In this document: positions 609 through 42,049 of the stretch, one piece after another
Layout: the number at the start of each line of letters is the position of its first letter
Numbering within the stretch: the stretch's first letter is position 1
UHGV virus genome: UHGV-1352645
Strand: one strand, 5' to 3'
Source of the DNA: a virus
DNA: 42,087 nucleotides
The notes under the pieces: generated by a model
What the model was told of the DNA's origin: nothing
Databases searched by the model: none
Seen by the model: the letters and a program-made list of their open reading frames with translations, nothing else
Made by a program: the position numbers and the translations under genes

Positions 609-661
609 TTCTATTTTTTTAGCCTGAAATTGTTACCTAACTGATTAAATTTAATAGAATA

Positions 662-693
662 TTACCATAAAGGTAAACTTACCAAAAAGGTAA
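662..693. promoter_or_regulatory. Putative OR operators: tandem TTACCATAAAGGTAA (662-676) and TTACCAAAAAGGTAA (679-693) between the repressor and cro-like genes; weaker half-sites at 633-637 and 709-723
   Basis: Two 15-bp palindromes 2 nt apart sit just upstream of a sigma70-like rightward promoter (-35 TTGATT 700-705, -10 ATAATC 723-728). Confidence 0.55.
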
Positions 694-762
694 CAGTCAT
701 TGATTTTTACACCAGATTGGTAATAATCAGGCTGTCTAAAGTTAGTCCGGGACTAAAAAAAT

Positions 763-996
763 ATGAGCGATGTGCAAAAATTTGACTTCAAACGCTGCTG
801 GCTCGACCTCTCTCCGGCAGAGCGTGAAGAGTTCGCAAGTGACGCCGGCACGACCAGCCACTACATTCAGGTTCACCTGACTGGTCGTAGAAGAATTCCA
901 CGTAAACCTCTGTTAGAAAGACTGTTTAAAGCCTGCAAATCCCGTAAGTGGATCTCCGCAAAATCCGACCTGGTCCTCTGGTTCCACGAACGTTAA
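763..996 (+). CDS. Cro/YdaS-like HTH regulator
   Basis: 77-aa protein with the motif TTSHYIQVHLTGRRRIPRKPL typical of the YdaS/Cro-like family. It is divergent from the repressor gene. Confidence 0.5.
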   Translation: MSDVQKFDFKRCWLDLSPAEREEFASDAGTTSHYIQVHLTGRRRIPRKPLLERLFKACKSRKWISAKSDLVLWFHER

Positions 997-1142
997 TCCT
1001 CAAAACTCACCCGCGCCGCCACCCCCAGGCGGCTCCTGCCTCTCCCTGAATACCAATCCGGTAATAATTATCCAAATACGGTTGATCTTTTTTTGGCTTG
1101 CTGCAAAATTACCAAAGACAAATGCAGAAAGAGGGCAAGTCG

Positions 1143-1346
1143 ATGAAGCGAATTACCCAGCGAGAGGCCATTGAGCAGGGGCTCACTCGGTTCTACACAG
1201 GGAAGACGTGTAAGCATGGCCATGACAGCGAGCGATACACCATCAGCGGCGAGTGCGTTACGTGCAATAACGAGCGCGCGCGCCGGCAGGCGCAGATGAG
1301 ATCAGAGCGTCTGAAAGCAGCCAGAAAGGCCAGGGAGGCAGCATGA
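1143..1346 (+). CDS. Small CxxC...CxxC zinc-finger protein (ORF track extends upstream to 1098)
   Basis: ATG at 1143 is preceded by a GAGGG Shine-Dalgarno. The product has CKHGH...CVTC cysteine pairs. Confidence 0.3.
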   Translation: MKRITQREAIEQGLTRFYTGKTCKHGHDSERYTISGECVTCNNERARRQAQMRSERLKAARKAREAA

Positions 1347-1373
1347 CGCCTTCAGCTTATATGGGGGTGCAGG

Positions 1374-2144
1374 ATGGCCAGTAGCTGGATAAAAGTCGAG
1401 GTGATCACACCAGACAAGCCTGAGATTTTCCAGATAGCGGAAATCCTGAATATCGACCCCGATGCGGTACTCGGTAAGCTCGTTCGCATATGGGCATGGG
1501 CGGATCAGCAGACTGTTGACGGTAACGCTGGCAGCGTTACAAAAGGAGTGCTTGACCGTATCGCTTTTATTACAGGATTCGCTGATGCACTGATCGCTGT
1601 TGGTTGGCTCGCTTACGACGGCAACAAGCTTATTCTCCCCAACTTTGAGCGACATAATGGGGAAAGCTCTAAAAAACGGGCACTTACAAACAGAAGGGTT
1701 GCAGCACACCGCAAAAATGAAACGCAGAAAGTAACGCTGGCTGCGTTACAAAAAGCGTTACCAGAGGAAGAGGAAGAGGAAGAGGAAGAAGTAAAAGATA
1801 AGATCCCCCCTAACCCCCCAAGGGGGAGGGAGCCAAAAAAATCTTATCCGTATCCTGAACAGCTCAATGCCGAAGCCTGGGATGAGTGGAAGGCCTACAG
1901 GTCAGAAATGCGGTTTAAAGCCTACGCGCCAACTGAACGGAGCGAGGGCGCAGCAATCACCGAACTGATTAACCTGTCTGGCGGCAACCACACACGGCAG
2001 ATGCAGATTGTGAAGCAGAGCATGGCGAAGGGTTGGAAAGGGCTGTTCGAGCTGAAAGGCGGCTCTGGGCAGCGAGATGTGAACACCATATCCCGTCCGG
2101 ACACCGAGATCCCGCCGGGATTCAGGGGCGGACCGGCGCCCTGA
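1374..2144 (+). CDS. Putative replication initiator / replisome organiser-like protein with an internal acidic (E8) linker
   Basis: 256-aa ORF in the position of lambda O. Its N-terminal region (WIKVEV...GKLVRIWAWADQQTVDGN) is reminiscent of phage replication organiser N-domains. The gene contains two copies of the palindrome GTAACGCTGGCWGCGTTAC and a GAGGAA x4 run. Confidence 0.3.
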   Translation: MASSWIKVEVITPDKPEIFQIAEILNIDPDAVLGKLVRIWAWADQQTVDGNAGSVTKGVLDRIAFITGFADALIAVGWLAYDGNKLILPNFERHNGESSKKRALTNRRVAAHRKNETQKVTLAALQKALPEEEEEEEEEVKDKIPPNPPRGREPKKSYPYPEQLNAEAWDEWKAYRSEMRFKAYAPTERSEGAAITELINLSGGNHTRQMQIVKQSMAKGWKGLFELKGGSGQRDVNTISRPDTEIPPGFRGGPAP

Positions 2145-2149
2145 CAGCC

Positions 2150-2177
2150 AGCGCAGCGCGGAAGCGCGTTTTTTTAC
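2150..2177 (+). terminator. Rho-independent terminator (GC hairpin plus T7 run)
   Basis: AGCGCGGAAGCGCG followed by TTTTTTT, directly after the stop of the 1374..2144 gene. Confidence 0.45.
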
Positions 2178-2187
2178 GCCTTAATGT

Positions 2188-2264
2188 TTACCAAAAAGGT
2201 AATAAAATATGCGCAAGACTATTGATATTGATCCGTTTATGGTTATAAATTACCAATAAGGTAA
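2188..2264. promoter_or_regulatory. Two TTACC-N5-GGTAA palindromes (2188-2202 TTACCAAAAAGGTAA; 2250-2264 TTACCAATAAGGTAA), the second ending 5 nt before the ATG at 2270
   Basis: Exact matches to the operator-like motif. Confidence 0.5.
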
Positions 2265-2269
2265 AAATC

Positions 2270-2617
2270 ATGCGAAAGACACTACAGGCACTTGGCCGGC
2301 TTAAAGCGGGCCAGATGAACAAAACCGAAACTGCGTATGCGCAAGAGCTTGAACTGCGTAGGCGCTACGGGGAAATCGCCTGGTACCGGTTCGAAGGCAT
2401 CAAGCTGCGTCTGGCTGACAACACGTTCTACACGCCTGACTTCGCCGTGATGCTGGCAAACGGCCAACTGGAAATGCACGAAGTGAAGGGGGGTTACTGG
2501 ACTGACGATGCCAGGGTGAAAACCAAAGTCGCAGCCGACCAGTACCCATTCCGGATCATCGGAGTAACGAAGCTCCCGGCAAAAGCCGGCGGCGGGTGGA
2601 AGGTCGAAGAGTTCTAA
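2270..2617 (+). CDS. DUF1064-like predicted PD-(D/E)XK nuclease
   Basis: 115-aa protein with YTPDF...EVKG motifs. Confidence 0.45.
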   Translation: MRKTLQALGRLKAGQMNKTETAYAQELELRRRYGEIAWYRFEGIKLRLADNTFYTPDFAVMLANGQLEMHEVKGGYWTDDARVKTKVAADQYPFRIIGVTKLPAKAGGGWKVEEF

Positions 2618-2678
2618 AACAACGATCTTCATTGATATCAATTGAATCAATAAGTTAAACGGGTAAGCGGGGGTAAGT

Positions 2679-2813
2679 ATGGATTTCGATTTCGTGAATT
2701 ACAGCCGGCGGTCGCTACTGCTGTTCGTGATGGTGGCAAACATCATTGGGTGGGTGGCAATCATCGCCGTCCTGTATGTGGCTTATCTGGCGATCGAGTG
2801 GGTGACAGCATGA
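2679..2813 (+). CDS. 44-aa single-pass membrane peptide (below the ORF-track size cutoff)
   Basis: GGGGGTAAG Shine-Dalgarno 2 nt upstream of the ATG. The product is hydrophobic (LLLFVMVANIIGWVAIIAVLYVAYLAI). Its TGA stop overlaps the ATG of the next gene (ATGA). Confidence 0.35.
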   Translation: MDFDFVNYSRRSLLLFVMVANIIGWVAIIAVLYVAYLAIEWVTA

Positions 2814-3238
2814 ACATCGAAACAGTAAACGAGCTCATCGCCTCCCTGGAGAGCGCGGGCGAGCTGTCGATCAGAGAGCAGAAGTTCCTGAAGCTGGCGA
2901 AAGCGTTTAAGCAGATGGCGGCGGAGAATGTGGCTCTGAAGAATGTATTTAGCCAGAAGGAAATCCCATCCGAAGCAGTCGATGCATTCATGGAAACCGC
3001 AGTAATGGATCATGACTGGAATGAAACCTCCGAGTGGTCATGGGTTGAAAACGAAACAGAGGTTATCCACGCCGTTCTGGGCGCACTTAAACCTGAAACC
3101 CCCGCCACCGATCGCATCGTAGCCGGGATTAAGGCTGATGGGGTGGTGCAGGCTGCAAACGAATGTTATGGCGCTGGTTATATCTGCGAAACATTGCTGG
3201 CGTATGCCCAGCAGCTGCGCGAGGGGGCCGACAAATGA
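2810..3238 (+). CDS. Hypothetical early protein (142 aa; ORF track gives 2750 but the coupled ATG at 2810 is more likely)
   Basis: ATGA overlap with the upstream peptide, and acidic protein-like composition. Confidence 0.4.
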   Translation: MNIETVNELIASLESAGELSIREQKFLKLAKAFKQMAAENVALKNVFSQKEIPSEAVDAFMETAVMDHDWNETSEWSWVENETEVIHAVLGALKPETPATDRIVAGIKADGVVQAANECYGAGYICETLLAYAQQLREGADK

Positions 3239-3519
3239 GCAAGCACCTAAAACTAACTGACGCTCAAATCTTCACGCTTCGCCGTATGTATAACGGCACA
3301 CGGTATTTCATGCGTGGTGACAAACAAAAAGGCGAGCAAGATAAGGGCTCCCACCGCGTTAATTGTCCCTCTATACCAGTGCTTTTTCGTGAGGGGCTTG
3401 TGAATTGGTGTAATCCAGCGTGCAGAAAATTTGATGGACTGTATTACAGCGTGAATTTAACCCCCTCAGGCTTCGATGCAGTTGTAGAGGGGAAAACCAG
3501 CAAGGAGCGAGCAGCATGA
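3235..3519 (+). CDS. Hypothetical early protein (94 aa)
   Basis: ATGA stop/start coupling with neighbours on both sides. In frame with the 3163 track ORF. Confidence 0.35.
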   Translation: MSKHLKLTDAQIFTLRRMYNGTRYFMRGDKQKGEQDKGSHRVNCPSIPVLFREGLVNWCNPACRKFDGLYYSVNLTPSGFDAVVEGKTSKERAA

Positions 3520-4007: not shown

Positions 4008-4135
4008 TGCTTAATTTAGATGGTCTTGGCGGGGCAATTGTTATTTTCGGCATCATCTGCGCGGTGGTTGGCTGGGGAGTAATTGAGCTCATCCTCTGGC
4101 TGTTCTCGTTCGTTCACATTTCTTTTGGAGGTTAG
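4004..4135 (+). CDS. 43-aa single-pass membrane peptide
   Basis: Start overlaps the previous stop (ATGATG). The product (GGAIVIFGIICAVVGWGVIELILWLF) is hydrophobic. A GGAGGT Shine-Dalgarno for the next gene lies at its 3' end. Confidence 0.3.
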   Translation: MMLNLDGLGGAIVIFGIICAVVGWGVIELILWLFSFVHISFGG

Positions 4136-4139
4136 GGTC

Positions 4140-5105: not shown

Positions 5106-5293
5106 TGCCGTACTTCTTCCTGATTTTCGTCATCAGCAGCAATACATCGAATATGCAGGTGGTTCCTATGCAGAGTATGGAGCAGTGCAAAGCAGCCATT
5201 AAGGCGATGAAAGTTGCAGATGATAAGAGGTCCTGGGACGACGTTTCGCCGAGCGTAGATAATATTCAATGCGTAGAGGTGAAAGGTGCCTAA
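5102..5293 (+). CDS. Hypothetical small protein
   Basis: ATGATG start overlaps the upstream stop. Confidence 0.25.
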   Translation: MMPYFFLIFVISSNTSNMQVVPMQSMEQCKAAIKAMKVADDKRSWDDVSPSVDNIQCVEVKGA

Positions 5294-5624
5294 ATCCCCC
5301 GCAGAACGCAAAGCCGCGCAGCGCGCGCGGCAGTCCGCCGCCGGTGAGCGCAAAATTGAACTGGTGCTGGATGAACAGGAGCAGGAGATGCTGGCGCGGA
5401 ACTGCGCCGCCCGGCGCCCTGGTCGTGATCCCTACGAAATGGCCGAGTACATCGCGCTGCTGATCCGCCAGGATGACGCCCGGGTGCGCGGCCGGATTAA
5501 CGCCATCAGCAAACGCCGCTGCGGCAAGTGCGGCGATCAACTGCCGGTGGAATCCTGCCCTTGCACTGGTGATTCTCAGTGCTGGGCTACTCTTGGCTGG
5601 CACGAAACAAAACTACCGCTGTGA
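5286..5624 (+). CDS. Hypothetical protein with C-terminal Cys-rich zinc-ribbon-like motif (GTG start)
   Basis: CGKCG...CPCTGDSQC motif. The stop codon is embedded in the GTGACATGTCAC palindrome. Confidence 0.3.
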   Translation: MPKSPAERKAAQRARQSAAGERKIELVLDEQEQEMLARNCAARRPGRDPYEMAEYIALLIRQDDARVRGRINAISKRRCGKCGDQLPVESCPCTGDSQCWATLGWHETKLPL

Positions 5625-5661
5625 CATGTCACGACAGATTGACTAAATCCTTGCATGATTA

Positions 5662-5681
5662 TACTGTTTAAATATACAGTA
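5662..5681. promoter_or_regulatory. Consensus LexA (SOS) box TACTGTTTAAATATACAGTA overlapping a sigma70-like promoter (-35 TTGCAT at 5651-5656)
   Basis: Perfect CTGT-N8-ACAG with AT-rich spacer, 18 nt upstream of the ATG at 5699. Confidence 0.65.
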
Positions 5682-5698
5682 TTTTGGGGGTGAGGATC

Positions 5699-5956
5699 AT
5701 GGGTGGCAAAGACCGTAATTATACTGTCGTTTACCGCGGGGATTTTATCGACGCCGTACCTGATGGCCGATGGATGATGATCCAGCGTGGCAAGGAGTAC
5801 GGCGGCGGCTACTGGTTTGGTCGAGCTTATGCCGACTGCTTCTGGCTTGAGTTTGAGCGGCCAATGCCTCTATCAAGCTGTGTTGAGTACGTAGTGCTAT
5901 ACGACCATGTCGCTGCCCGAGCTCATGAGTTTGAGGATGAATTTAAACTAGAATGA
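5699..5956 (+). CDS. SOS-regulated small protein of unknown function (85 aa)
   Basis: GGGGGTGAGGA Shine-Dalgarno, then ATG at 5699 (track ORF begins at TTG 5684). Directly downstream of the LexA box. Confidence 0.45.
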   Translation: MGGKDRNYTVVYRGDFIDAVPDGRWMMIQRGKEYGGGYWFGRAYADCFWLEFERPMPLSSCVEYVVLYDHVAARAHEFEDEFKLE

Positions 5957-5957
5957 C

Positions 5958-5988
5958 CGCGGCCGCCGACTATGGCGGCTTTTTTTTG
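5958..5988 (+). terminator. Rho-independent terminator (GCCGCC-loop-GGCGGC plus T8)
   Basis: Hairpin and T-run seen directly in sequence after the 5699..5956 gene. Confidence 0.55.
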
Positions 5989-5998
5989 CGTGTTACTA

Positions 5999-6013
5999 TT
6001 ACCTAAAAGGTAA
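5999..6013. promoter_or_regulatory. TTACCTAAAAGGTAA palindrome upstream of the terminase operon
   Basis: Exact motif instance between the terminator and the small terminase start. Confidence 0.5.
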
Positions 6014-6033: not shown

Positions 6034-6618
6034 ATGCCAAAGGATCCGAAGCGCAAATCAACTCAGTACAAACCGTTGACGGTGATGCAGGAAGCCTACG
6101 CCCAGGAGTATGTGAAATGCCCTGAAAATCAGACGCAGGCGGCCATCAATGCCGGGTTCTCCCCAAAGTCTGCCCACGTCAAAGCCAGCACAATGATGCG
6201 TGATGAGCGTATCCAGAAACGAATCGCTGAGCTCATGGAGGAGCGCAACAAGCGCCTGCGCGTCAGTGCCGATTACGTGCTGCTGCGCCTGGTGGAAATC
6301 GACCAGATGGACGTGCTGGATATCCTGAACGACGACGGCAGCCTGAAGCCTATCCGCGAGTGGCCGAAAATCTGGCGAACCACGCTAAGCGGCTTTGATC
6401 TTTCCTCAACCATCATGAACATGGATGAGACCTCGATAGAGACCATCCTCAAGAAAATCAAATGGCCCGACAAGGTGAAAAACCTCGAGCTTATCGGTAA
6501 GCACGTTGACGTTAACGCGTTCAAAGAGCGCATGGAAGTTAACGTGAACGTTACCATTGCCGATCGCATGGCCGCCGCCCGGCGCCGCCTGAAAGAGCGT
6601 CAGGGTGGTGACCAGTGA
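6034..6618 (+). CDS. Terminase small subunit (Terminase_2-like)
   Basis: N-terminal LTVMQEAYAQEY...QTQAAINAGFSPKSA motif. It overlaps the large subunit start (GTGA). Confidence 0.6.
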   Translation: MPKDPKRKSTQYKPLTVMQEAYAQEYVKCPENQTQAAINAGFSPKSAHVKASTMMRDERIQKRIAELMEERNKRLRVSADYVLLRLVEIDQMDVLDILNDDGSLKPIREWPKIWRTTLSGFDLSSTIMNMDETSIETILKKIKWPDKVKNLELIGKHVDVNAFKERMEVNVNVTIADRMAAARRRLKERQGGDQ

Positions 6619-8520: not shown

Positions 8521-8672
8521 CCTTAAAAAAATGCCCGGCGAACCGGGCGAAACAGGGATGATGGAAAGTGCCGTCCATGGCTGGGTGTCACAGGGTTTAC
8601 AGCATGAAGTCATCGCAATGGCGTCCTGCTGTAAAAAGGGCGGTGGTCAGAAAGGGAATAACTGCCACCGCC
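8521..8672 (-). terminator. Two leftward rho-independent terminators (hairpins 8530-8547 and 8638-8672, each followed by a T-run on the minus strand)
   Basis: On the minus strand the sequence reads GCCCGGTTCGCCGGGC TTTTTTT and GGCGGTGG...CCACCGCC CTTTTTAC. No ORF lies upstream of them. Confidence 0.4.
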
Positions 8673-9351
8673 AAACTTGCCTGGAACTACGGGTATCACG
8701 GTCCTGAGGCGTGATTGGGTTGTGGTGGCCGGCGCTGATCTCCGGCTTAGTGACGATAGGCGTATTGCGACGCCTCGTTTTACATCTTGTCCGAATTGCC
8801 GAACTCTATAACCTTCCAGGAATGGTTATATGGCTTTATCGGTCTTGCCAGCGCCCTAAGTGATGCTCACGCATTATCTGACAAGTTCTCGTTCACCTGA
8901 TTAGCGCATCAGCCTGCGCATTCACCACAACGGAAAGAGCACTGCGGCGGAATCGAACCGCATCTGCATAAGCCGCATTTCCCAGATATGCTACTTACAA
9001 TGCCCTTACCTGTTGTGAAGGTTTGCAGAGGACGCATTAACACGGCACTTTGGCTCGTCTCCATTTCTGGAGGGTCGCAAGCATTTCACTCTGCTCAGCT
9101 TGCTGTCTTAAATATCCTCGTCTCTTCCGAGGTGTCACACCGTACCGCCACGATGGTGAGTCGCTGTCGTGCATGCAGGGCATGGCTTTCACATTCCGGC
9201 TACCCGCTGGGCCATGTACCAAGGAGCCCTCGGACCGCTATCGGCGCATGTGCCATACGCCGGATGCTTTCACACCTGGAAGCGCACTCCGCCATCTGAG
9301 TAACGACAAAGCCACCAATGGAAGGGAGTGGGGTGCGCTTTCATGTTGTGT

Positions 9352-9366
9352 TTACCAAAAAGGTAA
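9352..9366. promoter_or_regulatory. TTACCAAAAAGGTAA palindrome upstream of the structural operon
   Basis: Exact motif instance about 90 nt before the gp6.7-like gene. Confidence 0.5.
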
Positions 9367-9457
9367 TAATTTATCGTCAAAAGGTCAATACACTACGACA
9401 AATAAATCATATGTGGTTAAATTGGTAATAATTTAAACGCGTATGGAGCGCAGCAAA

Positions 9458-18130: not shown

Positions 18131-20875
18131 ATGCCAACCGTTCCGCAATATCAACGCCAGAGCCAGACGCAAACCGCGCCGGTGATGACGAGTAATCTTC
18201 GTGTGCCGGAAAATCCGCTGGTGCAGGGCATCCAGCAGGCTGCTGATACGTCGATCAATATGATGGCTGATGCAAAGCGCAAGGCTGATGTCGCGCTTAG
18301 CCAGGATGCTCTGCTGCAGTTTAATCAGTTCGGTGATGACCAGTTCAACAATCCTGACAATGGTCTGATAACGAAGCAGGGAAAGGCTGCGCTCGGGCAA
18401 AGCGATGTCGTCATGCAGAACATGCAGCAGAAAGCTCAGGACTTGCTGGGTACCGTGCCGGATGGCGAGGCCCGTCAGCAGTTATCTTTTCAATTGCAGC
18501 AGTCGATGCAGTCATTTCACAACCAGGCCCGCCGGTATGAGGTTGGCCAGTTCCAGCAATTTCAGGATCAGGCGTTTACTTCTGGAAACTCCCTAGCCGT
18601 AACTCAGTCCACCGATCTTTATAACGATAACCAGGCCTTCGTGGGTCTTGCCAAACAGCGTTTTGATGCTATTGATCAGTATGCTGATGCTCATGGCATG
18701 CCTGATGAATGGCGCGTGCAGCAGAAAACGCAGCTGAAGGAGCAGATGGGGCAATCGGCCTGGGTCGGAAACATTGCTCAAAAATACAGCGAATTACTTC
18801 AAACAAACGGCGAACCAGGAGATCTTGATGGTGTTGGCCGCGTTGTGGCTCACGGTAACTCTGGCGCAGCCAGGGGCCTGAGGAATAACAACCCCGGTAA
18901 TATTGAAGCAGGTTCAAACCCCTGGGAGGGGCAGACGGGGAGTGATGGCCGTTTTGCTACTTTTGCGACGCCCGAGCATGGGATCCGCGCGCTGGGTAAA
19001 AACCTGCTGTCGTACCAGCGCCAGGGATACGACACCGTGAGCGAGATCGTTAATCGTTGGGCGCCGGCCAGCGATGGCAATAACACCGATGCTTATATCA
19101 AGGCGCTGTGCAGCGCTCTTGGTGTGGGAGCTAATGACCCGCTTGATGTGTCCAACCCTAAAACCCTTGCAGCTTTGTGTGCCGGTATTGTTAAGCATGA
19201 AAATGGCAGTGTTCCATATAGTGCTGACCAGCTTGAAACTGGCGTGTCGGCTGCGCTCGGGTTAACTAACCTTGATTCACCAAAGCGCTATACGGGAAAT
19301 GCCGCTTTTGATGCTATGAGCCCTCAAATGCAAATGCAGGCATTGAGGCAGGCTAACGAGCTTAATAACCAGTACCGTCAGCAGTATGCTGAACAACTTA
19401 GCTCTGTAGTGAAGGATGCATATTCAGCTCTTGATGAGGGGCTTAGACCGGCTCAATTACCTTCTGAGGCTGATTTTATCCGGGCTAATGGCCCTCGCGT
19501 TGGGGCGTTGAAATGGCAAGATATGCAGGCGCAGATACAATATGGCGGCGTAATTGGTGCAGCTAAGGACCTTACCCCTGAAGGACGACAGGACATTCTT
19601 GAGCGACTTCGCCCACAGGATCCAAATGCTCCTGGCTTTGCAGCTAACCAGCAACGATGGGAGAAAATGCAGAGCAAATTTAAGCAAATGGATACAGAGT
19701 GGCAGGCACAACAGGGGCGCAACCGCTTAGTTTCATCCTTGCAAAATAACTTCCCCTTAGATCCTAACGACAAAAGTAACCAGGCAGCCGTGGACCATTA
19801 CTTTGCTCAGGATATTGCGCCTTCGTTTTCGATATCTGATCCGCAGAGCATCAATGCGCTGGCCACCGTCACAACTAAAAGCGGCATGATACCAACGCAG
19901 GTCAAAACTATGCTTAACAGCGGAGCAACCTCAAGAGATCCTGCACTGGTTGTTCCTATGGCAAAATTCTACGGCCAGTTATTCGATAATAACCCGGCGG
20001 CCGCGGCAACCCTTGATAAGGGAACGATGGCATTTTATGGGAAGGTTTACGATTATTCCCGCGCTGGAGTTCCGGAGGATAAGGCTGTGGACATGGCATA
20101 TAGCCAGGTATTCCAGCAGGATGACCGGATGAAACAGATGCTTTCCACTGCCATGCGAGACAAAAAATATGTCGCCGCACGGACAACTGCTGCACAAAAC
20201 AACGCCAGCAGCCTGACCTCATTTGGTTCTTGGTCTCCAGACATTACCGATCCAGGCAAATCAAATGCGGCCTATCAGCGTGATTACCAGACAATTTACG
20301 ATGCAAACTTTGCACAGACTGGTGGCGATGCAGACCAGGCTGAGAAAATGACCAACGCCATGATCAGAACCACATGGGGAGTTTCTACTATTAATGGTAG
20401 TGCAGAGGTTATGAAATATGCCCCAGAAGCGCTTTATGGGGTAAACAGTGGATCTGGTAACTGGATAGAAGGCCAATGGTATCAGGAGAAAAACGAGCTT
20501 AAAGCTAAAGCTTTTGGTGGTGCTCGTAGTGATACTGATTTGGTTATCGTTCCTGATGGTGTCACGCCAAGAGATAAAAGCTATGCGGTCATGGTGAGAC
20601 AGAAAAATCAGGACGGTTACGATGATGTCCGTCCGTATTATGGTGAGAATGGGCTTCCCGTTCGCTTCAAACCAGATCAGCAGACATCTCCGATGTACAG
20701 GCAAACCATGCAGTTCCAGCAGCAACGAGTCGATGAGGCTAGAGTGAAGCGAGAAGGAAATCCATTACCGCAGTTCAGTAACAATGAAGGCTATACGCCG
20801 CCAGATCTGACTAAGCCTTTTGGCTATGGTTCAGCCAATAACCTTCCTAGCAACATTTACGCAGGGGGCAAATAA
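18131..20875 (+). CDS. Internal virion protein C (T7 gp15-like) with an inserted putative cell-wall-binding or hydrolase-like segment
   Basis: 914 aa in the gp15 position. Segment aa 240-330 reads GNSGAARGLRNNNPGNIE...WEGQ...RFATFATPEHGIRA...WAP. Confidence 0.55.
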   Translation: MPTVPQYQRQSQTQTAPVMTSNLRVPENPLVQGIQQAADTSINMMADAKRKADVALSQDALLQFNQFGDDQFNNPDNGLITKQGKAALGQSDVVMQNMQQKAQDLLGTVPDGEARQQLSFQLQQSMQSFHNQARRYEVGQFQQFQDQAFTSGNSLAVTQSTDLYNDNQAFVGLAKQRFDAIDQYADAHGMPDEWRVQQKTQLKEQMGQSAWVGNIAQKYSELLQTNGEPGDLDGVGRVVAHGNSGAARGLRNNNPGNIEAGSNPWEGQTGSDGRFATFATPEHGIRALGKNLLSYQRQGYDTVSEIVNRWAPASDGNNTDAYIKALCSALGVGANDPLDVSNPKTLAALCAGIVKHENGSVPYSADQLETGVSAALGLTNLDSPKRYTGNAAFDAMSPQMQMQALRQANELNNQYRQQYAEQLSSVVKDAYSALDEGLRPAQLPSEADFIRANGPRVGALKWQDMQAQIQYGGVIGAAKDLTPEGRQDILERLRPQDPNAPGFAANQQRWEKMQSKFKQMDTEWQAQQGRNRLVSSLQNNFPLDPNDKSNQAAVDHYFAQDIAPSFSISDPQSINALATVTTKSGMIPTQVKTMLNSGATSRDPALVVPMAKFYGQLFDNNPAAAATLDKGTMAFYGKVYDYSRAGVPEDKAVDMAYSQVFQQDDRMKQMLSTAMRDKKYVAARTTAAQNNASSLTSFGSWSPDITDPGKSNAAYQRDYQTIYDANFAQTGGDADQAEKMTNAMIRTTWGVSTINGSAEVMKYAPEALYGVNSGSGNWIEGQWYQEKNELKAKAFGGARSDTDLVIVPDGVTPRDKSYAVMVRQKNQDGYDDVRPYYGENGLPVRFKPDQQTSPMYRQTMQFQQQRVDEARVKREGNPLPQFSNNEGYTPPDLTKPFGYGSANNLPSNIYAGGK

Positions 20876-26466: not shown

Positions 26467-26711
26467 AGTGACCTCCTTGAATTATCTGTTGGATGAACAT
26501 TGTACCTAAAGCATACACTGGCTGGCAAAAAAAACAGCAGTTGAAAGAAATAGTGAACATAATAATTCATATATGGATTGATTTTGTGTTTTAATACGCC
26601 ATATATTACCTTTGTGGTAAATTTACATCGCCTAAACCTTGTGCCATAGTGATCGGGCATCGGCAAAATCCGGTGCCGGGATTGGCGTCCCGGATTGCTA
26701 AACGGCGCACA

Positions 26712-26735
26712 ACACGCGCATTGCGTGTTTTTTTG
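26712..26735 (+). terminator. Terminator-like hairpin ACACGC-GCATT-GCGTGT plus T7 in the leader upstream of ant
   Basis: Inverted repeat plus T-run about 150 nt before the ant ATG. Confidence 0.35.
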
Positions 26736-26886
26736 TGCACGCGCTTTGTCGCACCTATCAATGGTGGGCTGGGCGGGGGTCCGAAAGGACGCCGGTATCC
26801 GTTTAGGCCGGTACGCCAACTCCGTTCAGTTCACCACCAGTAATTGGCGTTGCGGTGGTGATAACTCTACTAAGCGGGGTATCACA

Positions 26887-27576
26887 ATGAACACCAAACC
26901 TTCCATTTTCAACTTCGAATCCGACTCAGCTATTCGCGCCATTATGATCGATGGCAATCCTTGGTTTTTTGCATCCGATGTATGCCGCGCGATCGGCATC
27001 GCAAACCACCGTGATGCAGTTCGTAAACTTGATGATGACGAAAAGGGCGTCGGCTCAACCGACACCCTTGGCGGTGAGCAGGAATCAGTAATCATCTCCG
27101 AGTCCGGCCTCTACACTCTGATCCTCCGATGCCGCGATGCGGTGACGCCCGGCACAATCCCTTACCGCTTCCGCAAATGGGTAACAGGTGAAGTGCTGCC
27201 GCAGATCCGCAAGACCGGGCGCTACATCCGGGAAGAGTTATCGCCGGCGGACAAAGCCCGCATGCTGGCGCAGGAGATGACGAGCAACATGCTGCCGGCC
27301 ATCATGGACGCGCTGCAGATCGAGCAGAAGACTTACGATTACCCGCTGAAGCCCGGCTATCGTGAGCGCATTCATTGCCCTGATGGCGTGCGCGGCCTGG
27401 TGGATAAATCAATGCTGATGGACATGCTGCGCAAGATGGACGCCGACGGGCATGATGTGGCAGGCGCCGTAACGGAATTAACGGCAATGCTGAGTTACAT
27501 CACGGGGGTCAGTACCTGCCTGCGCGATATAGAGACGCACGCTCAGTATGTGATGGCTAAGGCCAATGGTTACTGA
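26887..27576 (+). CDS. ant: Antirepressor, Bro-N domain plus C-terminal domain (Ant)
   Basis: N-terminus has the Bro-N signature FNFESDSAIRAIMIDGNPWFFASDVCRAIG. ATG at 26887 (track ORF 26695 is an upstream extension). Confidence 0.7.
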   Translation: MNTKPSIFNFESDSAIRAIMIDGNPWFFASDVCRAIGIANHRDAVRKLDDDEKGVGSTDTLGGEQESVIISESGLYTLILRCRDAVTPGTIPYRFRKWVTGEVLPQIRKTGRYIREELSPADKARMLAQEMTSNMLPAIMDALQIEQKTYDYPLKPGYRERIHCPDGVRGLVDKSMLMDMLRKMDADGHDVAGAVTELTAMLSYITGVSTCLRDIETHAQYVMAKANGY

Positions 27577-28084: not shown

Positions 28085-28175
28085 GGTCGCCTCCTGTTTT
28101 ACCTTATTGGTAATACTAAGCCACTCATGCAATCCGTCAAGAATTATTTTAAATGTGCTTCCTGGCTATCAATCC

Positions 28176-28436
28176 CTATCTGAGTTGCTGCCGCAACTGC
28201 ATTGCACAGAAATCCAGGTGTGTTTGCAGCTCCCGCATCGACAACTGCGAGCTTGTCACATAGTTAACCAGTGCCACCAGTTCCGCCGCCGCACCGCTGA
28301 CATCGTGGCCATCTCGCTCCATTTCCCTGAGCAACTCCATCAGTTGTGATTTTACAACCAGGGATCTGACCCCTTCCGGGGTGTGAATACGATCCGCAAA
28401 ACCTTCGTCGACAGGATACTGGTACCGCTCTGGCAT
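28176..28436 (-). CDS. Small protein homologous to the C-terminal domain of the Bro-N antirepressor (candidate SOS-induced antirepressor or regulator)
   Basis: Its segment ERYQYPVDEGFADRIHTPEGVRSLVVKSQLMELLREMERDGHDVSGAAAELVALVNYVTS aligns with Ant residues KTYDYPLKPGYRERIHCPDGVRGLVDKSMLMDMLRKMDADGHDVAGAVTELTAMLSYITG. ATG at 28436, 19 nt downstream of a LexA-like box. Confidence 0.5.
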   Translation of the reverse strand: MPERYQYPVDEGFADRIHTPEGVRSLVVKSQLMELLREMERDGHDVSGAAAELVALVNYVTSSQLSMRELQTHLDFCAMQLRQQLR

Positions 28437-28454: not shown

Positions 28455-28474
28455 TACTGTATATATATACATAT
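28455..28474. promoter_or_regulatory. LexA-like box TACTGTATATATATACATAT (one mismatch: ACAT instead of ACAG)
   Basis: CTGT-N8-ACAT immediately upstream of the leftward operon 28436 to 27626. Confidence 0.5.
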
Positions 28475-28510: not shown

Positions 28511-28525
28511 TTACCTTAATGGTAA
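28511..28525. promoter_or_regulatory. TTACCTTAATGGTAA palindrome in the divergent promoter region between the leftward antC-like/hicBA operon and the tail fibre gene
   Basis: Motif instance; a half-site CAAAAGGTAA lies at 28476-28485. Confidence 0.45.
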
Positions 28526-28623
28526 TGTTTTTGCTCGTTTTGATCTGTTTTATTCATATATGGTTTGATGGGTAATAGAATGCTTCTATGCACGCGCGCC
28601 AGCGCTGACCACTGGAGCAGACT

Positions 28624-34708: not shown

Positions 34709-35000
34709 CATGGTATTTTTCATGGTACTGTTTCCCGGTGACGGTATATAAAACGGTACGTAGAATTTATCGTTTCATAAACTTGTTTTCAGTCAATTGG
34801 TTACGAGCACTGTAAATAATTGAGTGGGAATGATTAACGGCTACATTATAGCTAATCATATCTACTCAAATTGAAATGCAACCCTCTGTTTTTACAGAGG
34901 GTTTTTCTTTATATCACATCAACACTATTCACTCTATCTCACATTTTTTGACGGTATACCTGACGGTATTACCATTACGGTATACTCTCGTACCGTCAGA
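34705..35000. other. Candidate attP region: two clusters of (A/C)YGGTAY repeats (34710-34759 and 34951-34996) flanking a roughly 190-bp core, immediately upstream of the integrase gene
   Basis: Direct repeats ACGGTAT at 34951, 34963 and 34977 plus an inverted TACCGT at 34991. ATGGTAT/ATGGTAC/ACGGTAT/ACGGTAC at 34710-34759. Confidence 0.35.
34880..34910 (+). terminator. Rho-independent terminator AACCCTCTG-TTTTTA-CAGAGGGTT plus T-run downstream of the lysis cassette
   Basis: 9-bp perfect stem plus TTTTCTTT. Confidence 0.6.
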
Positions 35001-35025
35001 AAAAATGATGCATCACGGGTGAAAT

Positions 35026-36276
35026 GTGCTTACCGATACCAAACTAAAAAACCTGAAACCGCAGGGCAAAATGTACAAGGTCTCCGATCGCGACGGTCTA
35101 TACGTAGCCGTGCTGATCTCAGGCACCATCTCGTTTCGTTACGATTACCGCATCAACGGCCGCCGGGAGACGCTGGTTATCGGTCAGTATGGTCGTGACG
35201 GTATCACACTGGCTGAAGCCAGGGATGAACTGATAGCCGCTAAAAAGCTGCTGAACGCAGGCCAGTCGCCGGCTGCGGCGAAGCGTGACGGTATCAAGCG
35301 GATCCGCGGAGCCGAAACATTTACGGTACATACCGACGCCTACATGAAACATGTTGTCCTGGCTGACAGCACGCGGGCTATGAAGCAATCAGTAATCGAC
35401 CGGGATATTTTGCCTGTTCTCGGAAACAAAATGATGTCAGAGATAACGACCCCTATGGTGCGTGATCTTTGCGATCGCATAGTCGAGCGCGGCGGACGCG
35501 CGACGGCGGTGCAGGCGCGCGAAATAATCAGCAGCGTGTACCGGTACGCCAATGACCGCGGTCATGGGTTATTCAACCCTGCCGCAGATATTAAGCCGCT
35601 ATCTATCGCAAAATTTGAGGAGCGAGAGCGTTTTCTTAATCCAAGGGAAATCGGTATTTTCTTCAGAGCCCTGAATGACTTTAGCTCCATGGGGACTTTA
35701 AAAATGGCGATCAAACTAGTCCTCATAACCATGGTCCGAAAATCTGAATTCGTTAACGCAAAATGGTCTGAAATAGATTTCCATCACAGAACATGGACGA
35801 TCCCGGCTGAGCGCATGAAGAAAAGAAAGGCGCACGTGATTTTCTTGTCTGATCAGGCTATGGATCTCCTTGTCGGCTTAAACATGTGTGCTGGTGGGAG
35901 TGAATACCTTGTTCCTGGCAGATATGACATTAGGAAGCCGCTTTCTAACGCAGCGCTAAATTCCCTCATCGACAGGACAGTAAAATCAATTAACGATGCA
36001 GGTGAACCATTACAGCGTTTCACTGTGCACGATCTCAGAAGGACCTGCAGCACCAACTTGCATGAAGCTGATTATCCATCTGACTGGATCGAGATGGGAC
36101 AGGCCAGAGCGCAGAAAGGAACTCGAGGAGTATATAACAAGGCGAAATACGCAAAGCAGCGGGCCTACATGCTGCAGCAGTGGGCAAATATGGTTGATGC
36201 ATGGATAAACGGGGAGCATTACGACCTGGTGCCGTTCTCCCCGTCTGCATTTGAAAAGTGGATGAATGAACAATAG
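35026..36276 (+). CDS. int: Tyrosine integrase, P4-like (N-terminal arm-binding DUF4102-type domain), GTG start
   Basis: LTDTKLKNLKPQGKMYKVSDRDGLYVAV...TLAEARDELIAAKKLL N-domain. C-terminal catalytic region has HDLRRT and a conserved Tyr region. Confidence 0.85.
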   Translation: MLTDTKLKNLKPQGKMYKVSDRDGLYVAVLISGTISFRYDYRINGRRETLVIGQYGRDGITLAEARDELIAAKKLLNAGQSPAAAKRDGIKRIRGAETFTVHTDAYMKHVVLADSTRAMKQSVIDRDILPVLGNKMMSEITTPMVRDLCDRIVERGGRATAVQAREIISSVYRYANDRGHGLFNPAADIKPLSIAKFEERERFLNPREIGIFFRALNDFSSMGTLKMAIKLVLITMVRKSEFVNAKWSEIDFHHRTWTIPAERMKKRKAHVIFLSDQAMDLLVGLNMCAGGSEYLVPGRYDIRKPLSNAALNSLIDRTVKSINDAGEPLQRFTVHDLRRTCSTNLHEADYPSDWIEMGQARAQKGTRGVYNKAKYAKQRAYMLQQWANMVDAWINGEHYDLVPFSPSAFEKWMNEQ

Positions 36277-38619: not shown

Positions 38620-38667
38620 CGTTACCTCTCTTTTTTCAGTGCGGCGCCGGGCGCGCCGCGGTGGTGA

Positions 38668-39549
38668 TTACATATGGACTTCGTTCAGTTCGTCTTTGCG
38701 GATGCCGTATACATCGGTGGCAGCGTCCAGTAACTCCTGGTTGCCAGCCAGACGGTGGGCCGCGTATTTGTATGCCTTGTCCAGTTCTGCAACGTTACGA
38801 GCCGCCATAGCCGCAGAAGAGAAGCCAGAGAGAATGTCTTCTGGGGCGCGGTCGTCAGTCTTTTTCGCCTTCTCTTCATGGTGCTGATCGGGGTGCGAAT
38901 TGATCAGCTGATTCATCCCCGCAGCGGTGCTAGCCGGTGGCGTAATGTCGCGCTCAACACGCGGTGCTGCTTCCTGCAATTCGTCAGGGGTGTAGACGCC
39001 AAGGAGAACATCAGGGGCGTGCAGGCGTGCCCAGCGCTTAACACACAGGTAAGCCAGTTGCTGACGCGGATCCTGCTCCCAGAGGGGTGAGTTGCGCACT
39101 CCGGCTTGCGCCATGCTGATGGTCAGGGTGCGAGGCTCAGATTCGCCTTTAAGGGTTGCCCACACTGTCACTGTCAGGCTCGGCGATTTGTCGGTTTTCC
39201 CGCTTACCTTTGACCAGTCGCCATCCCATTTGTAGTTCAGACGAGTGGCCAGAAGGTTTGAGGAAGAGACAACCGCATTAACCAGTTGCGCTTCATAGCC
39301 AAGCGTGCCGTTTACCACATGAGTTTTCTGCGCTACCGCGAACGGGTTCATTCCCCACTGCGCCGCTTGCATAGTCACCGCCATACAGTCTGCCGGCTTC
39401 CCTGCAAGATGCGCCGGAACAGTAACCCTGCTCTGAGCCATCAGCTCAGCAAAGCGCACTAACTGGTTGATGCCTTCCGGGCTGAAGATTGCCGCGGCGG
39501 TGCCGACGGTAGCGCCAGGCTGAGAAGTGATTGCGATATCGTTGCTCAT
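38668..39549 (-). CDS. recT: RecT single-strand annealing protein
   Basis: RecT-family core (GYEAQLVNAVV...) lying downstream of an exonuclease gene. Confidence 0.75.
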   Translation of the reverse strand: MSNDIAITSQPGATVGTAAAIFSPEGINQLVRFAELMAQSRVTVPAHLAGKPADCMAVTMQAAQWGMNPFAVAQKTHVVNGTLGYEAQLVNAVVSSSNLLATRLNYKWDGDWSKVSGKTDKSPSLTVTVWATLKGESEPRTLTISMAQAGVRNSPLWEQDPRQQLAYLCVKRWARLHAPDVLLGVYTPDELQEAAPRVERDITPPASTAAGMNQLINSHPDQHHEEKAKKTDDRAPEDILSGFSSAAMAARNVAELDKAYKYAAHRLAGNQELLDAATDVYGIRKDELNEVHM

Positions 39550-40367
39550 ACGTACATATCCTGTTTACGTGCCCACTCAGGGCGTTTAATAACTTCAAAT
39601 CCACCCCAGTCTCCTGTTTCGCGGCACTGGTGATAGGTATTCAGATCCCGGCGGTATAGCGCATGCCCTGTGTCCACGTCCTGCGCATCCAGTTCGAACA
39701 CCCGCACCGGGTAGCGGCCGCAGTCAATGGTTTCGCTCACTGCCAGGAAGAAGAATCCATGTGGATCGCCGGTGGTTTGCTGCGCGCCTTCGCGGTACAT
39801 CGCGTCCTGTACGTGGTACCGGAATTCCTCAATGTGGCGCGAGAAACGCTCCATATCGGCAACCTTCTTCACGTCCAGCAGGACAGGGTGATTCTTCAGG
39901 CGCTTGTCCGGGCGTATGCGGCACAGCTCGCCAGTCTCCGGATCCGTCCAGTAGTGGGAGGCTTCGCAGAATCCTTCTGCCTCAAGAAGCCAGCGCGCTG
40001 CCGGGTGCGCCATTGCGCTATCACGCATCAGTTTCAGCTTCCGGCCCTGTTCGGCGTCCATTACCGTCATGCCCATGTTCTCGACGTCTTTCAGGAAGGC
40101 TTCCTGATCTGCTTTCCCCTGGTTGGTTCTCAGGTTGAACTGCGGCGCCACGATGAAGCGCTTATCGAACTCTTCCGGCTCCAGAAGAAGGCAGTGCAGG
40201 GCAGTACCCATATCAAGAGCTTTCAGCTTTTCGGTATCGACCGGTGCTGATTTCTGCCACTGCAGAAGGGCCGGGCTCAGCGCCACCATATCCAGCTGTG
40301 ATTTACTCACGCCGTCTCCGGCGTGGTAGTCCTCATTGCTGATATCGAAGTAAATTCCTGGTGTCAT
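39546..40367 (-). CDS. RecE-like 5'-3' exonuclease (exonuclease VIII C-terminal PD-(D/E)XK domain only)
   Basis: N-terminus GIYFDISNEDYHAGDGVSKSQLDMVALSP matches the RecE nuclease-domain start. Coupled to recT. Confidence 0.6.
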   Translation of the reverse strand: MTPGIYFDISNEDYHAGDGVSKSQLDMVALSPALLQWQKSAPVDTEKLKALDMGTALHCLLLEPEEFDKRFIVAPQFNLRTNQGKADQEAFLKDVENMGMTVMDAEQGRKLKLMRDSAMAHPAARWLLEAEGFCEASHYWTDPETGELCRIRPDKRLKNHPVLLDVKKVADMERFSRHIEEFRYHVQDAMYREGAQQTTGDPHGFFFLAVSETIDCGRYPVRVFELDAQDVDTGHALYRRDLNTYHQCRETGDWGGFEVIKRPEWARKQDMYV

Positions 40368-40669
40368 GCCGCGTTCCTCGCCGTATCCAGCTGGTCAGCC
40401 AGATCCCACTTTGCGATGATGCTGGTCAGCGCGGCCTGGTACGCCGCGAGAGCTTCTTCGAATTCCGGGCTCATCATCAGTTCTTCCAGAATCTCGGTGC
40501 GCACGCCTTTGCGCTCCAGTTCGTAGAAAGGTTTCTGCAGCTGGTGGTATTTGAGCGCGTCGATCAGCTCCACCTGGCGCTCATAGTGCATCTGGCTCAG
40601 CTGGTAGTTGCTGTCGATGCTGGTCATGATTTTTTTCAGGTTGTTAATCTGCTGAGTGTTCATACGCAC
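40364..40669 (-). CDS. Hypothetical protein (101 aa)
   Basis: Coupled ORF in the recombination operon. Confidence 0.3.
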   Translation of the reverse strand: MRMNTQQINNLKKIMTSIDSNYQLSQMHYERQVELIDALKYHQLQKPFYELERKGVRTEILEELMMSPEFEEALAAYQAALTSIIAKWDLADQLDTARNAA

Positions 40670-40670
40670 C

Positions 40671-41738
40671 TCAGTACTTGATAGAGACTGCAGATACCTT
40701 CCCGCTGGCGATGGCGATCAGTGCCTTCTCTGCCATTTCCTGCGTAAGTCCGCTTTCAATCAGGTCTGCGATAGCCTGTCGATTGATGCTGCGGCGGTGC
40801 TCTTTATCAGCGGCCCGGCGCGCTTCTTCTTCCGCAATGCGCTTCTGCTCAGCCAGGCGTGCTGATTCAACTTCCTCCTGACGGCGGCGCTCCGCTGCGA
40901 TAGCAGCGTTCTTTTCCTGCTCAGCTTTTTCCGCAGCGGCTTTTGCTTCACGCTCTGCTTTCTGCTGGGCTTCAATTTTTTCGTGCTCTGCGCGTTCAGT
41001 TGCAGCTCTGGCTTCAGATTCACGGCGTGCAGCAGCATCAATTTCAGCCTGTGCCTTTGCCTCTGCATCACGCTTAGCCTGTTCAGCGGCTTCACGGCGG
41101 ATATTCTCTTCACGCTCAAGGCGTGCTTTTTCTTCTGCCTCTTTGCGCAGGCGATCAAGCTCAGCGGCTTCATGTTCGCGCTTTTGCGCTATTACCAGCG
41201 ACGCTTCCAGTTGCTGAATAGTTGAATCTTTAGCCACTCCCGCCTCTGCTGCGCGTTCCTGCCAACTGTCATCCAGCACCACGGATTTAGCTTCCAGAAT
41301 GCGCGCCTGAATATCAGCAGAAGGAAGGTAGTTACCGGCAGAGTCGATCACGTCAGCCAGCGCACGCAAATCCATAAGGCGCTGCTGCAGTGCTTCGGTG
41401 CGCGCCTTTTCAGCCTCTTCCCACTCGGTAAGAGGGCGGCGTACTTCATCGCGCAGCTGATCGCATTCGGTGACGAAACGGCGCAATTCGGCTTCAACCA
41501 CTTTCGGCTGCTCCTTAAGGCGCTTCAGGTAATCCCTGCCAGGTTTCTCTACAGCAGTTTTGCTGCGTGATACCTGTGCGGCCAGCGATGCAATACGAGC
41601 CCGTCCCTTTGCAGTGCTCAGGTCAGGAACTTCGTTTACTCCGGCGCGGATCTTTTCCAGGAAGGAATCAAGCCCGTTCTCAACGTAAATTGCCGGCGCC
41701 ATGTCTGGCGCGATTTCGATAATTGCTAAATCAGTCAC
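40671..41738 (-). CDS. Large coiled-coil protein with K/E/A/R-rich repeats (first gene of the leftward early operon; GTG start after a GGGGGTGAG Shine-Dalgarno)
   Basis: About 355 aa with a long EAKA/REAE-type helical repeat region. The track ORF extends upstream to 41843. Confidence 0.4.
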   Translation of the reverse strand: MTDLAIIEIAPDMAPAIYVENGLDSFLEKIRAGVNEVPDLSTAKGRARIASLAAQVSRSKTAVEKPGRDYLKRLKEQPKVVEAELRRFVTECDQLRDEVRRPLTEWEEAEKARTEALQQRLMDLRALADVIDSAGNYLPSADIQARILEAKSVVLDDSWQERAAEAGVAKDSTIQQLEASLVIAQKREHEAAELDRLRKEAEEKARLEREENIRREAAEQAKRDAEAKAQAEIDAAARRESEARAATERAEHEKIEAQQKAEREAKAAAEKAEQEKNAAIAAERRRQEEVESARLAEQKRIAEEEARRAADKEHRRSINRQAIADLIESGLTQEMAEKALIAIASGKVSAVSIKY

Positions 41739-41897
41739 TTTCTCACCCCCATACCCATTTCCGTTTTTGCTGCCAGTTTGCTGACGAACGCCCAGCTGAT
41801 TGCTTCCGGCAGCGTGCGAAACTTCCAACTCATCAGCCCGCATGCCGTAACGCAGTACCAGCCGTTAATGATTTGCCATTGCATACACACCTCACTA

Positions 41898-42049
41898 TTA
41901 CCATTTGGTAAATGTCAGGGGTATGAGAAAGCCACCCGGTGGTGGGTTTCTGGTAATTCAACGCCCTGCTGTTACCGTTAAGGTAATAATCTGATCAATT
42001 TTCGAATTAGTCAATAGATGTGACGAGGAAAAGTTTACCAAAATGGTAA
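41898..42049. promoter_or_regulatory. Putative OL operator cluster: TTACCATTTGGTAA (41898-41911, 4-nt spacer), TTACCGTTAAGGTAA (41972-41986), TTACCAAAATGGTAA (42035-42049)
   Basis: Three motif copies upstream of the leftward early operon. Mirrors the OR cluster on the other side of the repressor gene if the genome is circular. Confidence 0.5.

Follow-up and report, generated by a model that had tools for sequence, protein, structure and literature searches.

A dispersed 15-bp palindrome as the predicted operator of a tetrameric, antirepressor-controlled repressor in an epsilon15-like phage of Klebsiella

The 42,087-bp stretch of viral DNA analysed here (UHGV virus genome UHGV-1352645, called the window below) carries between its genes repeated copies of a 15-bp palindrome, TTACC-N5-GGTAA, which, judging from its positions and conservation, is almost certainly the site at which the immunity repressor of the phage binds, with copies at nearly every promoter. 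The window comprises the whole genome of a temperate podophage of Klebsiella that is epsilon15-like (Uetakevirus-type), and the dispersed palindrome is, on alignment, a conserved and already annotated property of the epsilon15-like group, of which the window is a further example. We consider it highly probable that (A)TTACC-N5-GGTAA(T) is the operator of a tetrameric repressor, Rep, that is in turn controlled by an antirepressor, Ant. The additions made here to what had been annotated are the geometry of the operators relative to predicted promoters, a conserved pairing of operators at 62-63 bp, and two extra accessory promoters under predicted Rep control.

Exact matches to the motif TTACCNNNNNGGTAA number 11 in the window, against 0.02 expected from dinucleotide-preserving shuffles, and 16 matches are found over the whole window if one mismatch is allowed (0.63 expected), which bears out by a wide margin the expectation of an earlier model-made reading of the letters alone (the sequence-only reading) that the motif would exceed shuffled controls. 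The spacer is always 5 nt long, with the sole exception of a 4-nt copy at 41898-41911. Every one of the 11 exact copies lies between genes, as that reading had claimed, although the intergenic share is only 8.8% of the genome (P ~2.5e-12); the matches with one mismatch in coding sequence (28803, 29889, 39038) are not above the chance prediction, and the 15-kb structural operon has no exact copy inside or between its tightly packed genes. The nine exact copies reported previously (662, 679, 2188, 2250, 5999, 9352, 28511, 41972 and 42035) were all correctly placed, and the three variants listed with them (41898, with an N4 spacer; 1050, with ATACC; 34969, with GGTAT) are likewise present; absent from that list were two exact copies, 26606-26620 and 28099-28113, and the degenerate copy ACACCAGATTGGTAA at 709-723. 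Its assumption that the end of the window joins the start also proved sound, in that the joined sequence is colinear with Klebsiella phage Kp4865-1 over 498 nt, and the clusters at 41898-42049 and 662-723 therefore flank the repressor gene (Table 1).

Table 1. Operators, predicted operators and regulatory genes of the window, with the repressor sites annotated in epsilon15 (last two lines, epsilon15 coordinates). OR and OL, right and left operator; PR and PL, rightward and leftward early promoter.
Feature	Position	Strand	Basis or remark
rep, immunity repressor, homologue of SPC32H/epsilon15 Rep	27..608	-	193 residues; homology
OR3, exact operator TTACCATAAAGGTAA	662..676		conserved in 6/6 genomes
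OR2, exact operator	679..693		exact match; 17 bp from OR3
OR1, degenerate operator ACACCAGATTGGTAA	709..723		between -35 and -10 of predicted PR
First PR gene, Cro-like small regulator	763..996	+	phrog_35 'transcriptional repressor', E 8.8e-9
Variant operator ATACCAATCCGGTAA	1050..1064		match with one mismatch or fewer; upstream of gene 1143-1346
Auxiliary exact operator	2188..2202		exact match; just after terminator 2155-2177, 62 bp upstream of 2250
Exact operator over -10/+1 of predicted promoter TTGATA-18-TAAATT (2222-2251)	2250..2264		promoter scan, alignment
Exact operator before terS (6043-6618)	5999..6013		after terminator 5961-5988; epsilon15 homologue 12-27, annotated 'repressor'
Exact operator before gp3-like and portal genes	9352..9366		62 bp upstream of half-operator 9414-9428; epsilon15 homologue 2931-2947, annotated 'repressor'
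Half-operator TGGTTAAATTGGTAA fused to extended -10-like TGgTAATAAT	9414..9428	+	block invariant in six genomes
Exact operator on -10/+1 of predicted promoter TTGATT-18-TATATT (26578-26607)	26606..26620		promoter scan
Exact operator on -10/+1 of predicted leftward promoter TTGACG-16-TAGTAT (28140-28113)	28099..28113		promoter scan
ant, small antirepressor	28176..28436	-	86 residues; 65% identity to SPC32H Ant
LexA-like box TACTGTATATATATACATAT upstream of ant	28455-28474		aligns with LexA-type boxes of relatives
Exact operator between divergent ant and tailspike promoters	28511..28525		epsilon15 homologue 19895-19911, annotated 'repressor'
Half-operator adjoining tailspike -10 (TTCATA-17-TAGAAT, 28553-28581)	28561..28575		50 bp from 28511 operator
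Variant TTACCATTACGGTAT before int	34969..34983		overlaps integrase arm-type repeats GACGGTAT and -10-like TATACT
OL3 remnant, 4-nt spacer, just upstream of first PL gene	41898..41911		alignment with epsilon15
OL1, exact operator on -10/+1 of predicted PL	41972..41986		PL = TTGACT-17-GATTAT, 42014-41986 (-)
OL2, auxiliary exact operator	42035..42049		exact match; 63 bp upstream of OL1
epsilon15 annotated repressor sites	12-27 (terS); 2931-2947 (gp3/portal); 19895-19911 (tailspike); 35906-35922 (RuvC-like)
epsilon15 annotated repressor sites at OL	32479, 32554, 32616

The sequence-only reading took such dispersed sites to be undescribed; they are in fact already annotated in the GenBank record of epsilon15 (AY150271.2), in which seven features with sequences ATTACC-N5-GGTAAT are entered as 'protein_bind, repressor, lysogeny', with conservation throughout the genus. 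Exact copies of the 15-mer number 11 in epsilon15, 10 each in SPC32H and Kp4865-1, nine in Tyrion and eight in phiV10 (chance ~0), and when the intergenic regions were aligned these copies fell at positions homologous to those in the window, which is the conservation at homologous intergenic positions that had been predicted. Among the 59 exact copies of the six genomes, the half-sites (5+5) are all identical, whereas the spacers vary, being rich in A/T in the Klebsiella and epsilon15 groups, with a higher share of G/C in phiV10 and Tyrion, and invariant half-sites with variable spacers are the pattern of protein-DNA recognition. The same alignment bears on the idea that the palindrome acts as an RNA hairpin (a processing, translational control or stability element before genes), to which we give next to no chance. 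In its favour, some copies overlap the ribosome-binding region, with 5 nt between the end of the operator and the ATG at 2250 and 14 nt between operator and start codon at 28099, and the epsilon15 record does have intergenic RNase III sites annotated; it was rejected because the folds are weak (-3.8 to -5 kcal/mol, z-scores -1.2 to -2.8) and the 59 copies contain no compensatory half-site variation while the loop varies, and, in addition, the copies at OR, at OL2 and at the remaining auxiliary sites precede their promoters and would have no useful transcribed context. As for a host transcription factor, we know of no enterobacterial regulator with this consensus.

The protein that would recognize the palindrome is encoded beside it. 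The product of 27-608 matches SPC32H Rep over its full length (PDB 5D50, E 2.3e-75) as well as the C-terminal fragment (5D4Z, E 1.3e-38), and is 64% identical both to epsilon15 gp38 and to SPC32H Rep. From these matches it is predicted to consist of an N-terminal DNA-binding domain, a middle domain of HTH_3 fold (dimerisation) and a C-terminal tetramerisation/Ant-binding domain. In Pfam there is a strong HTH_3 match at residues 109-152, and only helix-turn-helix (HTH)-type matches were obtained, with no Peptidase_S24 (LexA-type autocleavage) domain, and Rep is predicted not to be autocleavable. The previous description of a "double-HTH" repressor is thus loosely right, with the qualification that the HTH_3 match sits at the middle dimerisation domain of SPC32H Rep, the DNA-binding domain being N-terminal. 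For SPC32H Rep, secondary sources describe a tetramer on palindromic sites in which the DNA-binding pairs come from different dimers, and which is taken apart by tetrameric Ant (PMC9638917), and a domain order of N-terminal DNA binding, middle dimerisation and a C-terminal "TetDloop" tetramerisation domain of DNA-looping type (PMC9986798); according to the latter source, a structural paper from 2023, its repression mechanism had not been extensively characterised.

The identity between the Reps of the six phages falls to 44-46%, yet all have the same TTACC/GGTAA half-sites, which can be put down to the invariant N-terminal helix: the N-terminal segment "NLVNRW", part of an invariant block, is unchanged in the alignment of the six proteins. 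Covariation between Rep and operator was sought in phiV10 and Tyrion, whose Reps are 44-48% identical, and gave no discrimination, since the half-sites are unchanged and only the spacers are more GC-rich. These observations also bear on whether some other phage protein, i.e., the Cro-like product of 763-996 or the regulator encoded at 5286-5624, binds the dispersed sites and sets the timing of the lytic cycle. The Cro-like gene is the first gene of PR, and switches of the lambda type have operators common to Cro and CI; moreover, an extra factor is suggested by the conserved CATATnTGGTT-N5-GGTAATA that the gp3 and tailspike promoters contain. We nevertheless regard this as very improbable, as the half-sites are identical at OR and OL, beside rep, the invariant helix of Rep tracks the invariant half-site, the annotators of epsilon15 gave the sites to the repressor, and a Cro-like protein that shared the operators would do so in addition to Rep, without supplanting it.

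That the clusters flanking the repressor gene resemble the OR and OL of lambda, as the sequence-only reading proposed, is supported by homology and conservation. The 17-bp tandem of OR3 and OR2 was found in 109 IMG/VR contigs, mostly of ~40 kb. The predicted PR consists of TTGATT (700-705) and AATAAT (722-727) separated by 16 bp, and the OR1 within it corresponds to TCACC-N5-GGTAA in epsilon15. Further downstream, nnACC-N5-GGTAAT is kept at position 1050 in all six genomes, and this copy is probably a genuine, weaker operator. On the other side, the OL3 homologue of epsilon15 is an exact N5 site, and the 1-bp spacer deletion that distinguishes the window's copy is shared with Kp4865-1.

Promoters were called here as consensus matches in a promoter scan, supplemented by alignments. 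Five of the 11 exact sites adjoin the -10 of a sigma-70-like promoter, where 0.13 would be expected from the intergenic background (P ~3e-7), and four of these five promoter matches point to the downstream gene; the fifth, a leftward match (6040-6013) abutting the terS operator, has its -35 inside terS, is not conserved and was treated as what it probably is, a chance match. Two arrangements were distinguished. In the first (type A), the operator starts on the last 1-2 bases of the -10 hexamer and covers the predicted transcription start; this is the case at PL, at the DUF1064 module (2250), at the Bro-N/Ant-domain gene, at the DUF1902/HicA pair and at terS, where the operator is adjoined by an invariant extended -10-like TGnTACTAT (5991-5999). 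In the second (type B), a half-operator (nnnnn-N5-GGTAA) lies in the promoter spacer directly against the -10, as at PR (709-723), gp3/portal (9414-9428) and tailspike (28561-28575), and perfect operators are located upstream at centre-to-centre distances of 30 and 47 bp (PR), 62 bp (gp3) and 50 bp (tailspike). Two type A sites, those of PL and 2250, are also accompanied by a perfect auxiliary operator, 63 and 62 bp upstream, respectively. A block CATAT(G/A)TGGTT-N5-GGTAATA(A/G)AAT is common to the gp3/portal (9407-9432) and tailspike (28555-28581) promoters and invariant in six phages, and may be either a signature that late promoters share or the target of an extra regulator, for example the product of 5286-5624 (phrog_536).

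This geometry bears on the stoperators of mycobacteriophage L5, to which the sequence-only reading had compared the remote copies. Those of L5, bound by gp71, are reportedly asymmetric 13-mers that depend on orientation, lie within transcription units and act on elongating polymerase; applied to the window, the analogy would have the remote copies lie off promoters and stop RNA polymerase that reads through from upstream. Several placements agree with it: 2188, 5999 and 1050 stand directly after terminators and ahead of the next gene, the OL3 position (41898; exact in epsilon15) is between the start of PL and its first gene, and most of the genome forms a single long array of rightward genes, where read-through could plausibly occur. 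The previous statement that the copies follow terminators holds for 2188, 5999 and 34969 (terminators 2155-2177, 5961-5988 and 34880-34911) and weakly for 9352. However, unlike the asymmetric, oriented sites of L5, those of the window are perfect 5+5 palindromes, for which an orientation bias is impossible, and rather than lying within transcription units away from promoters they are promoter-associated, with five of 11 adjoining a -10 hexamer and others at a set distance, 62-63 or 50 bp, from promoter-proximal sites, and with no copy within the structural operon. The analogy is therefore weak, and as an explanation of the sites it is unlikely, although at 2188, 5999, 1050 and the OL3 position a roadblock role could exist in addition to promoter occlusion. 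What the two phages do have in common is one immunity repressor with many sites throughout the genome beyond the early switch, and such dispersed sites would make the silencing of the prophage independent of the regulatory cascade.

The preferred explanation, a tetrameric Rep at promoter operators, is strengthened by the spacing of the sites. The 62-bp distance before the DUF1064 gene is the same in all six genomes, and in each of them the two OL sites are separated by 62 or 63 bp. In 109 IMG/VR loci (1.2 Mb), successive exact operators are separated by 62 bp (n = 104), 63 bp (n = 74) or 76 bp (n = 33), besides the 17-bp spacing (n = 109) that was fixed by the search pattern, and almost no other distances occur. 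Distinct intervening sequences numbered 56 at 62 bp and 34 at 63 bp, with pairwise identities down to 49% (62-bp, DUF1064), 57% (62-bp OL) and 69% (63-bp OL). The fixed spacing of 62-63 bp, taken together with a tetrameric repressor of the looping type, is most economically explained by a small loop or a bridged complex. The same operator set could define immunity subgroups by way of the spacer sequence. A bolder extension, to which we attach rather little probability, is that Rep tetramers bridge not only the 62-63 bp pairs but also the single operators at module junctions, so that the prophage would be a set of genome-wide repressor-closed loops whose operators are both promoter locks and roadblocks; if true, this would be the first genome-wide looping repressor network shown for any epsilon15-like phage.

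Several points weigh against the explanation as a whole. Expressed in helical turns, some of the centre-to-centre distances are not whole numbers (1.6 for 17 bp, 4.8 for 50 bp and 7.2 for 76 bp), and the conservation of spacing is partly due to shared ancestry. A number of the promoters are weak, those of terS and gp3 having no good -35, and the transcript predicted at 2250 would have a leader of only ~12 nt. None of the auxiliary operators 2188, 9352 and 42035, nor the OL3 remnant, coincides with a promoter, and they could be roadblocks. Finally, the annotation of repressor sites in epsilon15 is bioinformatic, as far as can be told.

From the enrichment, positions and conservation of the motif and the homology of Rep and Ant, we infer the following scheme of Rep binding, promoter activity, looping and feedback. 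In a lysogen, Rep would occupy the operators of essentially every phage promoter, holding PR (three sites), PL (two sites and a decayed third), the DUF1064/recombination unit, terS-terL, gp3-portal and tailspike, and, as accessory units, the Bro-N/Ant-domain antirepressor and the DUF1902/HicA pair. At type A promoters it would directly occlude RNA polymerase, whereas at type B promoters the weak proximal site would be filled through cooperation with the strong upstream sites, and a tetramer with two DNA-binding pairs could take a primary and an auxiliary site together, by cooperative binding or in a small loop. That a single repressor may silence every operon, as the sequence-only reading supposed, is plausible from the motif positions and the Rep homology; its assignment of the extra copies to modules stands for replication/recombination, terminase, structural and tailspike genes, and is uncertain for the integrase copy (34969).

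Induction would proceed without cleavage of Rep, in that cleavage of LexA would release ant, and Ant would disassemble Rep. The LexA-like box upstream of ant has one mismatch, CTG-N10-CAT instead of CAG, and the identical change is present in Kp4865-1. In SPC32N, a single base change in the LexA box of Ant leads to constitutive Ant expression, and by analogy the phage of the window may be leaky or easily induced. The 26606 operator serves the predicted promoter of a Bro-N/Ant-domain antirepressor gene (26695-27576), and the C-terminal domain of that protein (residues 214-285) is 49% identical to Ant; it is a second Ant-domain protein, with a Rep operator on its predicted promoter. With a type A operator on this promoter and an Ant-like domain in the product, loss of Rep would switch on a second Ant-domain protein, and a positive feedback would result.

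The second of the two operators not listed before, 28099, belongs to a predicted promoter that serves the DUF1902/HicA pair (28084-27626, minus strand). Here the two genes, DUF1902 (HicB-like) first and the HicA toxin next, resemble a toxin-antitoxin pair, and control of a toxin-antitoxin-like module by the immunity repressor, as predicted from the operator, would be unusual. The gene downstream of the 2250 operator is DUF1064/resolvase-like (2270-2617). Both operators of the 2188/2250 pair are followed by a near-identical AAAAT(A/C)ATGCG(C/A)AAGAC (window 2188-2285), which suggests a local tandem duplication, with the start of the downstream gene included, as the origin of the pair; a 16-codon upstream open reading frame between the two operators was rejected as it is not conserved in epsilon15 or phiV10. 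At the integrase gene, the GGTAT variant at 34969 is kept in epsilon15 and SPC32H, without a "repressor" annotation in epsilon15, and its role as an operator is uncertain because of its overlap with arm-type repeats of the integrase. Six copies of ACGGTAT (GACGGTAT-type repeats or their complements) are grouped near the start of int (34741-35295); the GACGGTAT repeats match sequences annotated as integrase-binding sites in epsilon15, and from this match the cluster likely represents the arm-type sites of attP.

The phage had been called a temperate T7-like one lacking its own RNA polymerase. The second part is correct, as PHROG and Pfam scans found no RNA polymerase gene in the window, and the first is replaced by the epsilon15-like, Uetakevirus-type assignment. 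The first 12 kb show 92-95% identity over 64-69% to phages Kp4865-1 and ST512-KPC3phi13.3, and the terminase region matches epsilon15, SPN1S, SPC32H and Tyrion. In the same scans, the gene order starts with rep, the cro-like gene, the replication initiator, the DUF1064/resolvase-like gene, terS and terL, continues with portal, capsid, tail and internal virion protein genes and an accessory block, and ends with ant, tailspike, lysis genes, int and a leftward RecT/exonuclease operon.

Three further observations were made. A near-consensus LexA box, TACTGTTTAAATATACAGTA, at 5662-5681 overlaps a promoter-like TTGACT-15-TATACT (region 5640-5702); just downstream is the gene 5699-5956 (85 residues, phrog_2100, no Pfam match), the last gene ahead of the terS terminator and operator, which is present in ST512-KPC3phi13.3 and has no counterpart in the annotated epsilon15 record. 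Judging by its box, it would be the second SOS-controlled gene of the phage. At 8943-8962 (minus strand), where SPC32H has a tRNA-Arg, there is a tRNA T-arm-like stem, GGTTCGATTCC; neither ARAGORN nor Rfam found a tRNA there, and the stem may be a tRNA remnant. A weak, sub-threshold match to the DicF-like Rfam family (22 bits against a gathering score of 48) lies at 8638-8685 (minus strand).

Among known systems, the closest is the Rep-operator-Ant system of the epsilon15-like phages (epsilon15, SPC32H/SPN1S, phiV10, Tyrion), which has the same palindrome, genome architecture and syntenic positions (OR, OL, terS, gp3, tailspike and DUF1064/RuvC); the predicted Rep domains, the positions of the palindrome and an ant gene divergent from tailspike with a LexA box all place the window within it. 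The window differs from it in its Klebsiella host and the two extra operators on accessory promoters, in an OL3 that has decayed to a 4-nt spacer and an OL pair at 63 rather than 62 bp, and in a LexA box that ends in CAT and not CAG. The arrangement resembles that of lambda CI in its divergent rep and cro-like genes, its tripartite OR (662, 679, 709) overlapping the predicted PR, its OL placed beyond the repressor gene, and an oligomeric repressor for which cooperativity or looping is likely. Unlike CI, Rep has no S24 domain, its C-terminus matching the tetramerisation/Ant-binding domain of SPC32H Rep, and induction would run via the antirepressor; operators are also found at late and structural promoters, and there is no evidence in the window of a Q- or N-type antitermination cascade. 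In the Streptomyces phage phiC31, the c repressor binds a 17-bp inverted repeat at many intergenic loci near phage promoters. Inverted repeats at intergenic loci close to promoters, bound by the immunity repressor (here, by prediction), are thus common to both, whereas protein family and host are unrelated and the promoter type is different. The Rco protein of the Bacillus plasmid pLS20 is described as a TetDloop repressor whose N-terminal DNA-binding domain is homologous to that of SPC32H Rep, whose C-terminal p53-like tetramerisation domain drives DNA looping, and which is inactivated by an antirepressor (PMC9986798). In contrast to the phage-wide operators considered here, Rco acts at two operator clusters as a switch of plasmid conjugation, and looping by an SPC32H-type Rep would be an analogy to it.

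The conserved pairing of operators at 62-63 bp bears on the mechanism by which Reps of the SPC32H type repress. For practical purposes, the operators could be used in promoter annotation in epsilon15-like phages, in the engineering of strictly lytic derivatives for phage therapy, and in predicting the immunity groups of Klebsiella prophages; the half-sites are common even to Reps that are only 45% identical. If the explanation is right, the immunity of these phages would follow a design unlike that of the lambda textbook, in which one tetrameric repressor, controlled by an antirepressor, would sit on the promoters of the terminase, head, tail and tailspike genes as well.

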